64,000 nucleotides of DNA from contig OY761158.1 in assembly GCA_963664405.1 (NCBI GenBank), forward strand, positions 6,016,001 through 6,080,000, given 5' to 3'. This DNA comes from Thermoanaerobaculia bacterium. GTDB lineage: Bacteria; Acidobacteriota; Thermoanaerobaculia; Multivoradales; Multivoraceae. Under the pieces are notes generated by a model. That model had not been told where the DNA came from. It ran no database searches and saw only the letters and a list, made by a program, of their open reading frames with translations. Made by a program: the position numbers and the translations under genes. Below, in pieces: positions 36,327 to 42,336 of the stretch. The number at the start of each line of letters is the position of its first letter. The first letter of the stretch is position 1.

Positions 36327-36416
36327 CGTTGTCCCCTTCGAAACGACAACGACAACACGGATCCTCGAACCAAGCTAGACGGGCTACGGCGAACTCTTAC
36401 GGTGGAACCGCTCGCT

Positions 36417-36508
36417 TTACTCGAGCTCGTAGCTCTCGTCTAGCCCCGGCGAATAGATCGGCGGATTGCCGCGCCAGTGGCCCTGCAGAAAGCGGACCGA
36501 TGACTCCA
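36417..36508 (-). repeat. Orphan 92-bp copy of the 3' end of gene 37952-38974
   Basis: Matches 37952-38043 apart from two substitutions. Confidence 0.9.
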
Positions 36509-36646
36509 CCCTGGTGCACCCTGGAACGGTGCCACCCTCTTGGTCCAGGAGCTACCTCCGAAAGCCAACTAACCCGTCGACCCCAGCCTCCTGCAAGGTG
36601 TTCGCCCCGGATCGCGTCCTCTACTTTCAGGAGGACCCAGGCACCA

Positions 36647-37582
36647 GTGCGAAGACCCAGAGGATTAGTTGCAGATCGCCTCGTCGAAGTCACCACACGG
36701 ACATCTCAGGGTCGCTACCTACTCAGCCCCTCCCCCGAAGTGAATCGGACCATAAAGGGTGTCATCGGCCGGGGCCAGAGACGGACCGGAATCGACATCT
36801 GTGGCCTCGCCTTCATGTCCAATCACGCCCACATGCTCCTCGTCCCGGAGAGCACTGAACAGCTCAGCGAGTTCATGGGATTCGTGAACGGAAACATTGC
36901 TCGCAAGGTCGGCCCTCTCCAGGGCTGGCGGGGCAGGCTCTGGGAGCGGCGCTACCAGCACATCATCATCTCCGACGAGCCCGAAGCTCAGATCGCTCGT
37001 CTGAAGTACCTCTTCTCCCAAGGCACCAAAGAGGGCTTGGTACGCCATCCCTTGGATTGGCCCGGGGTTCATTCTGCCGGCGCGACCCGGCGAGGCTATC
37101 GAGAGATGACCGGTGGTGTTTGGCATGACCAGACCGCAGAAGGCAAGGCTCGAAGAGCCGGTAAAATACTGACGCCACAGGAGTTCCTCATCGAAGAGGT
37201 GATCCGGTTGAGTCACGTTCCGTGTCTGGAGGACTGGAGATGGGAGCCGAGGTTGGAGCTCATCGAGCAGCTCCTACACGAGTGCGAGCAGATGGGCCGC
37301 CAACTTCGGGAGGACACCGGCAGACCTCCGATGGGGGCGAAGAAGATCCTCATGCAGGTCCCCGACTTCCGGCCGAAAGAGCTGGATCGATCCCCAGCTC
37401 CAGCCTTTCACGCGGTTTCGAGAGAGGCCTTCCAGAAGCTCAGAAAAGAGCAGAGAGAGTTCGTGAGCCTCTACCGCGAGTCCGCGGAGAAGCTCAAAGA
37501 AGGGGGGCTCGAGGTGGCCTTTCCACCCGGATGTTTCCCACCCCACCTACCCTACGTCCCCGAGGTGCGGGCAGGTCCGTAG
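36647..37582 (+). CDS. Y1 HUH transposase (IS200/RAYT-like)
   Basis: VEVTTRT, FMSNHAHML (HUH), LWERRY, LKY...KEGLV and WPGVHS motifs; RBS AGGAGG before the GTG. Confidence 0.85.
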   Translation: MRRPRGLVADRLVEVTTRTSQGRYLLSPSPEVNRTIKGVIGRGQRRTGIDICGLAFMSNHAHMLLVPESTEQLSEFMGFVNGNIARKVGPLQGWRGRLWERRYQHIIISDEPEAQIARLKYLFSQGTKEGLVRHPLDWPGVHSAGATRRGYREMTGGVWHDQTAEGKARRAGKILTPQEFLIEEVIRLSHVPCLEDWRWEPRLELIEQLLHECEQMGRQLREDTGRPPMGAKKILMQVPDFRPKELDRSPAPAFHAVSREAFQKLRKEQREFVSLYRESAEKLKEGGLEVAFPPGCFPPHLPYVPEVRAGP

Positions 37583-37799: not shown

Positions 37800-37901
37800 T
37801 AGGTGGGAAAGAGGGTGACACTTTTCTGGGGATGGAGCTTTGCCTCAGCTAGGTGGGAAAGAGGGTGACACTTTTCTGGGGATGGAGCTTTGCCTCAGCT
37901 A
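37800..37901. repeat. Perfect tandem 2 x 50-bp repeat containing GAAAGAGGGTGACACTTTTC
   Basis: Direct inspection. Confidence 0.9.
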
Positions 37902-37951
37902 CTTCACCAACTGGCAACACCATCAACTCGATCAGCTGTTCGGGCGCCGCC

Positions 37952-38974
37952 TCACTCGAGCTCGTAGCTCTCGTCCAGCCCCGGCGAATAGATCGGCGGA
38001 TTGCCGCGCCAGTGGCCCTGCAGAAAGCGGACCGATGACTCCAGGGTGAGATCCCCCCGCCTTCGCAGTGCCTCGACGCAGGCGTCGTAGGCGGGGCCGT
38101 CACCGCCGAGCTTGACCATCACCGGCGGGCGCGTCGCCTGCCAGTGCTCGTAACTGACGTAGCGCACCATCATGTAGGCCTCGTCGTAGCTGGGGTCTTC
38201 GGCGGGCAGGTCGCTTCCACCGGTCGTCGGCGTATTCGCTTCCAGACCCTCGCTCTCACCCGGCAGCGGATAGACCCTCAGCCATTGACCGACGATGCGC
38301 GCTCCCATCTTCTCGAAGTAGGGCCACACTCCGTCTTCGCTCAGGCTGCGGACCTGTGCAAAGGTCCCCTTCTTGATCCTGAAACGCCGCAGGGTGACGA
38401 TTTCTTGGCCCGGCTTGTAGCGACCGTGGCGCACCGGATGCACCGAGGACTCTCCCTCGACCTTTCGATAGCTCTCGTCGAGAGGGGGAAAGTAGTAGGG
38501 CACATTGGGCGCCATCGCTCCCTCCAGGTAGATCGGCCCGTCGGAGCCAGTGGTCACACTGCGTCGTATGGCCGCGGCCTCGCGCATCGCATCCCAGTCT
38601 GGGCCGTTGCCACCAAGCTCGGCACCACGTCGCGTCGCAGCCCAGTGGTTGAAACTGCGGTATCGCGCTATCCGATAGCCCTCGTCGTCACCGGCCGGCT
38701 TGCCACCCTGCGGGTAGACCACTTGCCACTGACCGACGTTGCGATTTCCGAGCTTCTCGTAAAACGGCCACACTCCGTCTTGCGACGCTCTCAGGTAGGT
38801 GTCGTGCGTTCCCGGCTTCAGTTGCTGGTGACGAAGAACCAGAAACTCGGTCCCAGCCTGGGATGTGCCATGGCGAACCGGGACGGGCTCCTGCGCTGTG
38901 ACGTCGGAGGACATGGTTGCGAACCCGAGAAGAACACAGATCCACCCACGAACTAGTCTTTTATCGCGCGACAC
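37952..38974 (-). CDS. Secreted protein with two NIPSNAP-like repeats
   Basis: Internal duplication of LR...K.GT...S.DGVWP..EK.G...VGQW...Y.S..HW.ATR. Confidence 0.7.
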   Translation of the reverse strand: MSRDKRLVRGWICVLLGFATMSSDVTAQEPVPVRHGTSQAGTEFLVLRHQQLKPGTHDTYLRASQDGVWPFYEKLGNRNVGQWQVVYPQGGKPAGDDEGYRIARYRSFNHWAATRRGAELGGNGPDWDAMREAAAIRRSVTTGSDGPIYLEGAMAPNVPYYFPPLDESYRKVEGESSVHPVRHGRYKPGQEIVTLRRFRIKKGTFAQVRSLSEDGVWPYFEKMGARIVGQWLRVYPLPGESEGLEANTPTTGGSDLPAEDPSYDEAYMMVRYVSYEHWQATRPPVMVKLGGDGPAYDACVEALRRRGDLTLESSVRFLQGHWRGNPPIYSPGLDESYELE

Positions 38975-39032
38975 TCTCACCTCCCCAGCGTTTGACCGAA
39001 GAATGTTACCTTGCCGGGGAAAACGACGCGAC

Positions 39033-39576
39033 TTACGCGGCTCGTGAGCCGGCCCGTACCCTAGCTTCCCATCGATCGATTGGAGCCCAGAGGCCGGGAC
39101 AGGGCTCGAGCACGGTTGCCGCACCTCCGCGGAGGCGCGCCAGGAGGAAGGGAATCACTCGCATCTCGCATCCCGGGATGCCGATCACGGCGGCCAGCAG
39201 GTGGCAGAGGCCCATATGGAGATGCACCGTGAGGGTCAAGAGAAGGGCGTAGGTCGCCACTGTGGGGTCCCCAGAAGGCTCCGCTCTGTAGCCACTGAAT
39301 CCCGGATAGGCCGAACCCCACGACCAGCGCGACCCCGGCCGGGGCGTTGCCCACCGGGAGCACCCGATGCAGGCCGAGCCGAATATTGAACGAAACCAGG
39401 TAGAACGCAAGGGCAACGAAGACCCAGAGACCCGTGCTCCAAGTGGCTTCTCTCAGCCCAGAGAAGTGGGCGATGATGGAGACGACGCCCTGGATCTGGA
39501 ACAAACCGACGAGAAGCTTGCCGATGCGTCCAACAATCGATGCCGGAGGCATGCCCTCGGCCGTCACCGTCGCCAC
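39033..39576 (-). pseudogene. Membrane protein (GCE motif, DUF6410-like), frameshifted at about 39265
   Basis: The N-terminal TM segments are in one frame up to AFWGP; the C-terminus TVATYALLL...GIPGCEMRVIP...PIDRWE is in the next frame. One extra C in a C4 run. Confidence 0.6.
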
Positions 39577-39586
39577 ACCACATCCC

Positions 39587-40669
39587 CTAGCGCGCTGCCA
39601 CCCTGACTTCGAAGTTAGCGCTGAAGCTCGCCAGCACCTCTTCGCGGGACTTCTGGCCGACGAGCTTCTCGAGCAGGCGTCCTTGGGCGTCGAGGAAGAA
39701 GTAAACCGGCACGAGATGACTCTCTACCAGGTCCGCCAGACTCGGATCGTTGAACCCCCAGATCTCGAACCTCGGCTCGAGCTCGGGCAGCCAGGCGTTC
39801 AGATCCTCGATGGATCCGCTGTTGATGTAGACACCGACCACGTTGATGCCCCTCGGACCGTAGGAGTCGGCAAGATGGTTGAGGATCGGTAGCGAGTCGA
39901 GAGAGTGACGGCAGTGAACGGCCAGGAAGACGAGGAGCGTCTCGGAGCCTCGAAGGCCGCTGAGACTGACTTCCTCGCCGGCCACGCTGTGGGCGGCGAA
40001 CTCCGGCAGAATGAAGTTCTCGAAACGCTGGCCATCCTCGGCCTTCTCGGTCACATACATGTCGAGGATCTCTCCGGTGGCTCCCGAGAGGTCGCCGTAG
40101 ATGGAGCACGCTTCATACTGTGCACAGCGGCTACCTGCGAGCAGATCGCCGAGGGCGCCCATCTCTTCCAGTTTGTCCATGACCGCATTGGTGAGCACGG
40201 CGCGATGATCCTCTGCGACCCTGACTGCGGTCGCTTCGAACACTTCGCTGTCTTCGAAGGCCGGGCTGCCGGTCTGAATAATGCGCTTGGCCATCCAATC
40301 CGCCACCCGATCGAGCTCCTCTGAGGAGAGATCGCCTCTCGAGGTCGCCGGGGTGCCCTCGCCCTGGAGTTGGGTTGGGTAGCCCACCTTGTTCACCACA
40401 TCGACCAAGTGCTGCGCGCTGACAGTCTTGGCCTGGATTCGCGCGATCGCTTCGTTCTTCGTGCGATCCACCGAGATCACCTCGACCCCGTCGACTCCCG
40501 CCAAGGCTCCCTTGACTTGAAGCTGACACATGGAGCTCGACATTCCCCGCACCTCGAGCACTACGGTCTCTAGATCCGCCTCCGCCGCGGACCAGATTGG
40601 AATTAGCGCGAGCAAGGTTGCCAGGAGTAGCAGTCGACCAAGAAATCTGTTGCTGGTAAATAGCGTCAT
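39587..40669 (-). CDS. Secreted HMA-domain + TlpA/redoxin fusion protein
   Basis: Signal peptide; HMA VRGMSSSMC; C-terminal redoxin LLVFLAVHCRHSLDSLP...VPVYFFLD. Confidence 0.78.
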   Translation of the reverse strand: MTLFTSNRFLGRLLLLATLLALIPIWSAAEADLETVVLEVRGMSSSMCQLQVKGALAGVDGVEVISVDRTKNEAIARIQAKTVSAQHLVDVVNKVGYPTQLQGEGTPATSRGDLSSEELDRVADWMAKRIIQTGSPAFEDSEVFEATAVRVAEDHRAVLTNAVMDKLEEMGALGDLLAGSRCAQYEACSIYGDLSGATGEILDMYVTEKAEDGQRFENFILPEFAAHSVAGEEVSLSGLRGSETLLVFLAVHCRHSLDSLPILNHLADSYGPRGINVVGVYINSGSIEDLNAWLPELEPRFEIWGFNDPSLADLVESHLVPVYFFLDAQGRLLEKLVGQKSREEVLASFSANFEVRVAAR

Positions 40670-40682
40670 CGTTCTCTCCTTG

Positions 40683-40997
40683 CTAGCTTTGCTTGAGAAG
40701 GGTCGACAGGACCTTGGTGACTCGGTCCAGTCGCTCGTCAGCATCACCGGTCATGCAGGTCTGGACGCACGACTTGAGCTCGTGATCGATCAGCACAGCA
40801 CTGAACTTATTGAGCGCCGCCTTCAGCGCGGCGACCTGGAGCAGGATCTCGTCAGCGCACCTCTCCTCCTCGACCATGCGCTGCACCGCTCCAACGTGTC
40901 CCTGGAGCCGTGCCAAGCGATTCGAGAGCGCCTTCTTGGAGGCGGCGTCGAGGTAGCCGGTCCCTGCTTTAGCCGCGGCCAGCTCTGCTGTTGTCAT
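40683..40997 (-). CDS. CsoR/RcnR-family metal-sensing repressor
   Basis: RLARLQGHVGAVQRMVEEERCADEILLQ...HELKSC motif. Confidence 0.9.
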   Translation of the reverse strand: MTTAELAAAKAGTGYLDAASKKALSNRLARLQGHVGAVQRMVEEERCADEILLQVAALKAALNKFSAVLIDHELKSCVQTCMTGDADERLDRVTKVLSTLLKQS

Positions 40998-41024
40998 GAT
41001 CGGTTCTCCAGAGTAGTAGATGGA

Positions 41025-41780
41025 TCAAGGCTGGTCTAGGTGGTCGAGCTCGCGGGCAAGCTCTTTCGCCTCGATGAAGCCTACGTGGCGAAAGAGCTCT
41101 TCGCCCTTGGGCGCCAGGACGACGATTGTGGGCAGGCCGAGTGCTTCGTAGTAGTTGGCCGCGACAGGATGTTCGTCGGTGTCGATTCGAAGGAACACAT
41201 TTCGTCCCAGGAACTCTTGAATCCCCACCTCGGAGATGGTTCGCTCTTCGAGCACTTTGCACGGGGCACACCACTCGGCCCAGAAGTCGAGAAAAAGGAG
41301 CTTTCCTTCGCGCTCTGCGGTGGCCAGCGCGACGGATATCGGCGGCGGAACCGGGCCGCTTCTCTGTTTCGCCTGCGCACTGTCTCCAGACGGAACGATC
41401 TCGGGCTCGAAGTCGAGCTCCGTGATTGCTTCCAGCATCTCAGTGGGTGCCACCTCGCCCGGGTCGTATCCCACCGTGAAGAGATCGGTGTCCAGATCGA
41501 CTCGGACTGCTTCGACTCCTGCGAGCCCTTCCAGGGCCGCTTCCACGCTGTCGGGTCAGCCCATTCACGTGGCGCCGCTGCGACTCTTCATCATGCCCCG
41601 CACGACGATGCGAACGGTCTCGCTCGAATCCTCTGGGCTCCCGCCGCGCCGGATGGGAATGTCGAGGACGATTCTGCCGCCGAGATCCTCCTGGGCGGCG
41701 GCCGTTTCCCGGTGGTCGACTGCGAGGAGTAGGAAGGCCACGACCGTGGCCGCGACTAAGGGCTTGTAGCGATACTGCAC
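41025..41780 (-). CDS. Predicted selenoprotein: signal peptide + HMA domain with UxxU + thioredoxin (WCAPC)
   Basis: ORFs 41565-41828 and 41025-41546 are in the same frame, separated by TGA-ATG-GGC-TGA at the CxxC position of the HMA fold. A hairpin lies just 3' of the UGAs. Confidence 0.78.
41521..41540 (-). other. Candidate bacterial SECIS hairpin
   Basis: GCGGCCCU-GGA-AGGGCUCGC, with a G-led apical loop 23 nt after the second UGA and 32 nt after the first. Confidence 0.5.
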
Positions 41781-41830
41781 GGATCGGCTCGTCTTCTTTT
41801 CCGCTATCTCCAAGAAGGCTCCCCACATAA

Positions 41831-41849
41831 TATCCCCTACGGGGGGATA
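41831..41849. promoter_or_regulatory. CsoR/RcnR-type operator
   Basis: TATCCCCTACGGGGGGATA: a G/C-tract palindrome with AT ends, adjacent to a TATTAT -10 on the minus strand. Confidence 0.75.
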
Positions 41850-41937: not shown

Positions 41938-42336
41938 ATGAGCCGACCCCTCGATGCAGGCGCCGCAGCCGAGGTCGCCCGGCAACATCGTATGGCGGAC
42001 AGCGTCGGGGTGCCCGTCGCGCGCCGCCACATCTTTCTCTGCGCCGATCAGACCAAGCCGCAGTGTTGCGAGAAAGAAAGGGGCCTCGAGGCTTGGAGCT
42101 ATCTCAAAAGGCGTCTCCGTGAGCTCGGCCTCTCCGAGGCCGGTGGCGTACTGCGAACGAAAGCGAACTGCCTGCGCATCTGCGAAGGCGGGCCGGTCGC
42201 TGTCGTCTACCCGGAAGGCACCTGGTATCGGCGATGCGATCCGCCCGTGCTCGAGCGCATCATCCAGGAGCATCTCCTCGGCGGCCGAGTGGTCGAGGAC
42301 TACCTGATCGTAGATCGCCCCCTCGACCCCTCTTAG
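41938..42336 (+). CDS. Thioredoxin-like (2Fe-2S) ferredoxin
   Basis: HIFLC...KPQCC...[20 protein letters not shown] motif. Confidence 0.9.

Follow-up and report, generated by a model that had tools for sequence, protein, structure and literature searches.

The 64,000-nucleotide window analysed here (G000:C1:6016001-6080000, where G000 is this Thermoanaerobaculia genome, one contig and 97% complete) contains a compact minus-strand gene cluster in which a predicted double-selenocysteine metal-binding protein is followed by a CsoR-family repressor. The five reading frames encode, in order, an HMA(UxxU)-thioredoxin (U is selenocysteine), the repressor, an HMA(SxxC)-redoxin(CxxS), a membrane protein with a GCE motif and a NIPSNAP-like protein, with intergenic gaps of 27, 13, 10 and 58 bp. 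The cluster is best explained as a soft-metal-induced envelope defence operon, most probably directed at Hg(II), that would capture metal and repair thiols outside the cytoplasm; a probability of roughly 0.5 is placed on this explanation. The original prediction for this DNA, made from the letters and their reading frames, had described the tight gene order, an operator palindrome ahead of it and signal peptides on both HMA proteins. The order and the palindrome are present, and both HMA proteins (first and third genes) begin with a hydrophobic stretch from which export is predicted. Its broader proposal, an undescribed extracytoplasmic metal-capture and redox module under a CsoR-family repressor, is supported.

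A predicted exported two-selenocysteine HMA-thioredoxin

The first gene reads through two TGA codons to give GMMKSRSGAT-U-MG-U-P within an HMA domain, followed by a WCAPC thioredoxin. Both UGA codons occupy the CxxC positions of the HMA loop, the HMA profile match runs across them, and the product matches HMA and Trx in Pfam. The AlphaFold model is confident over both domains, with a predicted local distance difference test (pLDDT) score of 83.7 and a predicted template modelling (pTM) score of 0.73. Both TGA codons are kept in all six homologous loci, two of which came from 80 metagenome loci returned and four from 400 phylum genomes; with the window this makes seven of seven, always at the two CxxC sites of the HMA. 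The 250 class genomes searched yielded no homologue with both TGA codons. The seven loci share the motif G[MLF]xK[ST]x[SG]GA[TV]-U-x-x-U-P, the WCAPC thioredoxin and a predicted signal peptide. In the window, a GTG at 41780 may be the true start and gives a typical signal peptide. Another database homologue carries W at both UGA positions, which suggests that the gene caller read TGA as tryptophan.

A hairpin with a GGA loop and a 6 bp stem follows the UGA codons at loop distances of 32 nt (first UGA) and 23 nt (second UGA), and its 24-nt segment folds at -13.0 kcal/mol. The bacterial selenocysteine insertion sequence (bSECIS) is modelled as a 3-9 nt loop with a G and a 4-16 bp stem, 16-37 nt from the UGA, with a minimum free energy of -7.5 or lower, and the window hairpin fits this model as given in the available text of PMC13188914. 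The hairpin folds at the equivalent distance in all seven loci. Five of them satisfy a strict rule that 4-15% of their synonymous recodings also satisfy, and compensatory change is seen at two stem pairs. Most homologues have another small stem, in which the second UGA itself is paired (TGACC...GGTCA); this stem is weaker in the window (41543-41558, minus strand). G000 encodes tRNA-Sec and a selA above cut-off, and selA is present in all five genomes with a UxxU gene (G000 and four others). The first gene agrees with every selenoprotein criterion examined, and selenocysteine insertion is predicted. Since gene callers break this selenoprotein into fragments, it has been overlooked.

The nearest curated family is the UxxU (seleno)protein profile NF041115, which scores the window protein at 42.5 bits and two homologues at 46.9 and 39.9 against a cut-off of 95, placing the window protein outside the family at its curated threshold. 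A protein of the NF041115 type appears as a 'putative mercuric reductase' row in a table of PMC13188914, in the part of that paper available. The window protein resembles NF041115 and NF045683 (MerT/CopZ selenoprotein) in its HMA fold, its two selenocysteines at the CxxC positions and its predicted heavy-metal role. Unlike NF041115, it has a longer loop (KSRSGAT) before the first selenocysteine, and the signal peptide and C-terminal thioredoxin common to the seven loci also set it apart. The HMA domains score against CopZ models about equally to MerP. A HMMER search of 1.84 billion representatives was dominated by multi-HMA proteins and gave three useful rows. The fused form is undescribed in the portions of the UxxU and selenocysteine-MerP literature covered, which include PMC13326102 and PMC1976440; Haft and Tolstoy 2025 (mSystems) lies outside that coverage.

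The repressor subfamily and its operator

The second gene encodes a member of the CsoR/RcnR superfamily (PF02583, 73.2 bits; cut-off 22.8). In an alignment to solved structures, the copper ligand His61 of M. tuberculosis CsoR aligns to E73 of the window repressor. R46, C47, E73, C77 and C81 are invariant in the 24 subfamily sequences (23 loci and the window), with Glu rather than His at the Y position and Arg rather than Tyr at the A position in every one; the neighbouring His72 is retained in just nine. The available parts of two sources describe Cu(I)-sensing CsoR proteins as having x-C-H-C ligands (bioRxiv 2021.07.25.453692) and a second-shell Tyr before the X Cys (PMC4235346). Identity as a Cu(I)-sensing CsoR was rejected: both features are missing, along with the TAC-X9-GTA operator and a copA in the operon. 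The same preprint, in the portion available, gives CstR persulfide sensors an x-C-x-C pattern, which the repressor matches through C47 and C77 without His. Neither a rhodanese nor a CoA persulfide reductase adjoins it in the window cluster; the neighbours seen at the 23 loci are mer-like, and rhodanese was not searched there as a family.

The subfamily was found in 9 of 300 phylum genomes and 18 of 250 class genomes, five of which overlap, giving 23 loci in 22 genomes. It was not found in 31 same-family genomes, and a plasmid collection gave no repressor match at E 1e-10. Neighbours were counted within ~6 kb of each repressor, as far as the contigs allowed. A merT-like gene is present at 20 of the 23 loci and a CopZ-N-terminal Fe-S protein at 13. 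True merA is present at eight, called in two cases above the TIGR02053 cut-off and in six by 43-53% identity and an SCCA[GE] tail; five further loci have a non-MerA flavoprotein disulfide reductase, and copA was found within the operon at none. The window repressor shares its top identity, 68%, with a regulator encoded in a csoR-merT-merP-merA operon. The five rows nearest to it, by both identity and path, are all merA-linked. With this repressor and operator in use in true merA operons, Hg(II) is the most probable effector. The original comparison with copper CsoR regulons was misplaced, since ligands and operator differ and the orthologues sit with merT, merP and merA rather than copZA. In the full-text listings covered no CsoR-type mercury regulator is described, and the passages of PMC8261052 do not mention CsoR; the supplement of bioRxiv 2021.07.25.453692 on uncharacterised CsoR clusters is outside this coverage.

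An operon of operator, merT-like gene, merP-like gene, CopZ-N-terminal Fe-S protein and repressor recurs in L194, L196, L198, L199, L225-L232 and L236. The merP-like gene is missing from its usual position in L231 and L232.

The predicted operator is a 19-bp palindrome, TATCCCCTACGGGGGGATA, at 41831-41849, 2 nt ahead of the first minus-strand ATG, and it probably overlaps the promoter spacer. With up to one mismatch, ATCCCC-N5-GGGGAT occurs in 19 of the 23 subfamily loci; 40 shuffles gave it in 1.0 on average and 4 at most, and 8 of 78 control loci with twice the bases have it. The site lies directly upstream of the first gene in most subfamily loci and directly 3' of TTGAC in L192 and L197. 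Since the exact 12-base core is expected 0.76 times per genome by chance, the evidence lies in the position of the operator and not in its uniqueness. The copper CsoR operator dyad is TAC-X9-GTA, according to the available text of PMC3902906; this dyad is missing from the window site, which reads TAT-X13-ATA. ATCCCC-N5-GGGGAT is the predicted operator of the subfamily. A sigma-70 scan returned no promoter or terminator above chance.

The HMA-redoxin and the GCE membrane protein

The product of the third gene matches AhpC-TSA in Pfam. Its HMA domain is weak in Pfam (E 0.013) and clear in NCBIfam and in the fold, the model matching an ATP7B metal-binding domain with a Z score of 13.9. The redoxin model matches ResA with a Z score of 18.6 and a root-mean-square deviation of 1.8 over 138 residues. 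Across 14 database homologues, C182, C188, H252, C253 and H255 are nearly invariant and the RCxxYxxC pair and HCxHS site are conserved, and the HMA domain ranges from CxxC through SxxC to absent. The C-terminal domain resembles the ResA/TlpA extracytoplasmic thiol-disulfide reductases, from which the protein differs in its CxxS active site, extra RCxxYxxC domain and N-terminal HMA. Among 60 relatives, only G052 has a full-length copy, without the other cluster genes. A scan of GTDB contigs with this protein returned one unrelated HMA match and nothing else.

The GCE membrane protein of the original prediction is present, but its gene is split in the assembly by a one-base frameshift at ~39264-39272; a 92-95% identical database protein is unbroken. 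Eleven full-length homologues conserve an H and the motifs GCEMR, CP and DRWE. One homologue lies downstream of the end of a P-type ATPase gene, with HMA and CopZ-N-terminal genes (read from translation). Pfam DUF6410 gives a faint match (E 0.026) to one homologue, and the ESM Atlas has no match of at least 0.9 for the GCE half. Two metal loci contain distant homologues, and one of these has TGA in place of both Cys codons. The latter (L232:8520-9077; PG-U-EMR, G-U-P), 2 kb downstream of a subfamily repressor, is a candidate uncatalogued selenoprotein.

The UxxU gene in other genomes

The UxxU gene has metal-related partners elsewhere. In G571, a MerR-type promoter precedes four genes, an HMA-redoxin gene and, directly after it, the UxxU gene, a merT-like gene and one for a MerP-like HMA protein; all MerR-type promoters described here are pattern matches and therefore candidates. 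G457 has, side by side, a redoxin gene, a MerR-family gene and a three-selenocysteine fusion that ends in a UxxU-HMA-thioredoxin, with three MerR-type promoters. The MerR-family protein of this locus (L168) has Cys at 82, 117 and 126, the positions of the Hg ligands in Tn501 MerR. In L059, a MerR-family gene and a divergent fusion of CopZ N-terminal, MerT and HMA parts (read from translation) precede the UxxU gene. Altogether, three of the six other loci have a MerR-family gene or MerR-type promoter alongside the UxxU gene, two have a merT-like gene and two an HMA-redoxin gene. No merA above cut-off was found in the four other UxxU genomes (90-100% complete, fragmented).

The fusion in L168 (7680-9689) consists of an aspartyl-protease-like part, an SPT-U-PG-C thioredoxin-like part, the UxxU HMA and a thioredoxin. 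In L169 the SPT-U-xx-C protein has a gene of its own; it has no Pfam or NCBIfam match. In L059 (3465-4922), the UxxU HMA-thioredoxin is extended by a PDZ domain and a GAET-U-U segment, with four TGA in one frame.

Metal and selenium genes elsewhere in the genome

No pump gene lies within the cluster, as originally stated; the genome does carry pumps elsewhere, namely CopA, a second P1B-type ATPase and two CusA-type resistance-nodulation-division pumps that exceed the TIGR00914 cut-off. A canonical C-H-C csoR with tandem TAC-X9-GTA operators (G000:2075409) is located at G000:2075380-2076952 (L025), where the gene after it is not copA but a permease-HMA fusion carrying a CSCG motif. No merA was found in G000, where the best TIGR02053 score is 390.7 (cut-off 454.45) and none of the five matches ends in a CC pair. 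For merT, PF02411 gave no match in G000; MerC, MerE and MerF were not searched.

Another UxxU HMA selenoprotein of G000 (GLT-U-PL-U), also predicted to be exported and extended at its C terminus, is encoded near 3942758 (L023:1261-1773, minus strand) and has no NCBIfam match at E 1e-12. A predicted exported UxxC HMA selenoprotein (GMI-U-GG-C) near 3325700 (L021:1381-1740, plus strand) lies downstream of two genes, one of the MerR family and one for a CxxC glutaredoxin-like protein that is apparently frameshifted. A tRNA-Pyl called by ARAGORN (G000:3207503-3207584) is probably spurious; pylS was not found.

Proposed mechanism and alternative explanations

In the proposed mechanism, the His-less three-Cys repressor would hold ATCCCC-N5-GGGGAT until metal binds and would then be released. 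C47 of one subunit together with C77 and C81 of another would form a site of thiols alone, fit for Hg(II) like that of MerR. The U-x-x-U loop would bind the metal through selenolates, whose affinity for mercury is high, in place of MerP and hold it at the envelope, and the fused WCAPC thioredoxin would keep the selenols reduced or release the adduct. The single active Cys of the CxxS ResA-like protein may attack metal-bridged or oxidised thiols, with RCxxYxxC as the resolving pair. The GCEMR/CP membrane protein, if intact in the strain, could pass electrons or metal across the membrane in the place of merT. Together with the thioredoxin, these two proteins would maintain selenols and periplasmic thiols in reduced form or pass the adduct onward. 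Metal would be captured and thiols repaired outside the cytoplasm instead of the metal being imported for reduction, and the module would likely stand in for MerT, MerP and MerA. Copper is already handled elsewhere in G000 by the canonical CsoR, CopA and CusA, which favours mercury. A reductase-free mercury defence, in which a new Hg(II)-sensing CsoR branch drives a di-selenolate trap in the periplasm, served by a dedicated thioredoxin and membrane partner, and in which the same effectors under MerR-type regulators elsewhere reflect regulator exchange, is put forward tentatively and would be somewhat unlikely in this full form.

Several observations weigh against a mercury defence operon. The complete gene order was seen only in G000 among 60 relatives, 23 repressor loci and the four other UxxU genomes. 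The repressor and effectors were not found together elsewhere, with no subfamily repressor in those four genomes and no UxxU or full redoxin gene at the 23 repressor loci. At three of the six other UxxU loci no metal regulator was seen, one of these being near a contig end, and the MerR-family neighbours score alike for ZntR, CadR and MerR, all below cut-off. The subfamily tree is poorly supported (1 starred branch of 22), and the GCE gene carries the frameshift. Thirteen of the 23 loci have merT-merP-like genes and the CopZ-N-terminal Fe-S protein with no merA, and merA was absent genome-wide from all five tested genomes with such loci, and the subfamily may therefore respond to soft metals more broadly, for example Cu(I) or Ag(I). 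Since mercury import without a reductase would be harmful, the clade with merA-less loci probably handles another soft metal.

An alternative is a copper or general soft-metal envelope system, in which the three cysteines would sense Cu(I) or Ag(I) and the HMA-redoxins would be periplasmic chaperones or thiol protectants feeding CopA and CusA. The merA-less loci with their CopZ-N-terminal protein are consistent with such a system, as are the similar CopZ and MerP scores of the HMA domains, the GCE homologue found after a P-type ATPase beside HMA and CopZ-N-terminal genes, and the presence of CopA and CusA in G000. However, the repressor lacks the His and Tyr on which Cu(I) allostery depends, G000 already has a canonical copper-type CsoR, copA shares the operon at 0 of 23 loci whereas merA does at 8, and CueR is a poorer match than ZntR and MerR for the MerR-family neighbours. 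A copper system is possible but doubtful.

A CstR-like sensor of oxidants or persulfide that controls envelope disulfide repair, with the HMA folds acting as redox modules rather than metal binders, is unlikely. The x-C-x-C arrangement is that of persulfide-sensing clusters, both effectors contain thioredoxin folds, a non-MerA flavoprotein disulfide reductase is found at 5 of the 23 loci, and the UxxU gene is fused to or beside other thioredoxin-like selenocysteine domains in L168, L169 and L059; the merT-like genes (20/23) and merA (8/23) at subfamily loci and the MerR-type control of the same effectors elsewhere point away from it. It is more improbable still that the cluster is a recent mosaic, in which a mer-operon repressor and operator were inserted together with mobile redox genes next to the ferredoxin and the whole, lacking a coherent function, is now in decay. 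Such a mosaic would account for the gene order unique to G000, the failure to find the subfamily in 31 same-family genomes, the frameshifted membrane gene and a transposase 0.4 kb beyond the NIPSNAP gene, but the operator is an exact match at the expected place and the effector pair recurs in two distant genomes. The three main genes (HMA-thioredoxin, repressor and HMA-redoxin) are also intact and tightly spaced, and the near-identical database proteins, the membrane protein among them, are unbroken.

Cluster features and neighbouring genes

The original prediction had included a double-NIPSNAP protein and a divergent ferredoxin. The fifth gene does show an internal duplication, but its NIPSNAP Pfam match (E 0.027) is below cut-off. 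Its homologues, present in 3 of 200 genomes, adjoin an ankyrin gene in two cases and have no operon gene within their 3-4 kb loci; the gene was rejected as part of the module and is probably a neighbour. The ferredoxin is present as described, but it is a resident gene found in 22 of 22 same-family genomes, and its loci contain an operon gene in 0 of 19 cases and uvrA in 3 of 19; it was likewise rejected. The synteny proposed as a check is not conserved over the complete order, but a two-gene core recurs in two genomes beside MerR-type promoters. The features are listed in Table 1.

Table 1. Positions of the cluster features and adjoining genes in the window.
Feature	Position	Strand	Basis
Operator, ATCCCC-N5-GGGGAT type	41831..41849	.	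Motif common to repressor subfamily loci
Predicted exported double-selenocysteine HMA-thioredoxin	41025..41828	-	Pfam HMA and Trx, homologues, AlphaFold model
Two in-frame UGA codons: U88 (41565-41567), U91 (41556-41558)	41556..41567	-	HMA profile spans both
SECIS-like hairpin GGCCCT-GGA-AGGGCT	41524..41538	-	Folding, recoding comparison, compensatory changes
CsoR/RcnR-family repressor, C47-E73-C77-C81 subfamily	40683..40997	-	PF02583, alignment
Predicted exported HMA (GMSSSMC), helical linker domain (RCxxYxxC) and ResA/TlpA-like redoxin CxxS (VHCRHS)	39587..40669	-	
GCEMR/CP membrane protein, ~180 aa, frameshifted in assembly	39033..39576	-	Homologues
Predicted secreted protein, two NIPSNAP-like repeats	37952..38974	-	Weak Pfam match
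Divergent thioredoxin-like 2Fe-2S ferredoxin	41938..42336	+	Resident family gene

Transposase-like gene copies with 89% DNA identity flank both csoR-family loci of the genome (window 36329-37582 and G000:2073998-2075010), and a third copy has 80%. The last 100 bp of the NIPSNAP region (37945-38043) are repeated at 96% across the transposase (36409-36508), and a 52-bp exact tandem repeat (37800-37901) lies directly downstream of the NIPSNAP gene.

Relation to known systems and significance

The cluster resembles mer operons in its predicted periplasmic HMA metal binder, small Cys-bearing membrane protein and metal-responsive regulator, and orthologues of its repressor head real merT-merP-merA operons. 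It differs from them in that a CsoR-family repressor replaces MerR and that merA and merT were not found in G000; the HMA domain differs from MerP in its UxxU motif and fused thioredoxin. With Cu(I)-sensing CsoR and copZA it shares the PF02583 fold, an operator with two G/C tracts and AT-rich ends, and a repressor gene inside the operon. Unlike the copper regulators, which have the type 2 operator TAC-X9-GTA, the repressor has Glu at Y, Arg at A, an extra Cys81 and ATCCCC-N5-GGGGAT, with no copA in the operon. It is like CstR in having two Cys at X and Z and no His at Y, but its invariant Glu at Y, third Cys and merT/merP/merA-like neighbours contrast with CstR and its sulfur-detoxification genes. 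The new elements are the repressor-operator subfamily and the exported SGAT-UxxU HMA-thioredoxin family; the parts come from known folds.

The locus defines a subfamily of CsoR-type repressors that has a distinct set of ligands and a distinct operator and is found at the head of true merA operons. Its repressor is a candidate for a new metal specificity within the CsoR family and a possible biosensor part. The antagonism between selenium and mercury is usually treated as chemistry or as the poisoning of selenoenzymes by mercury. If the proposed function is correct, a regulated, exported two-selenocysteine binder in genomes without a detected merA would make this antagonism a purpose-built defence, and selenium-rich bacteria would sequester mercury at the envelope rather than import and volatilise it.

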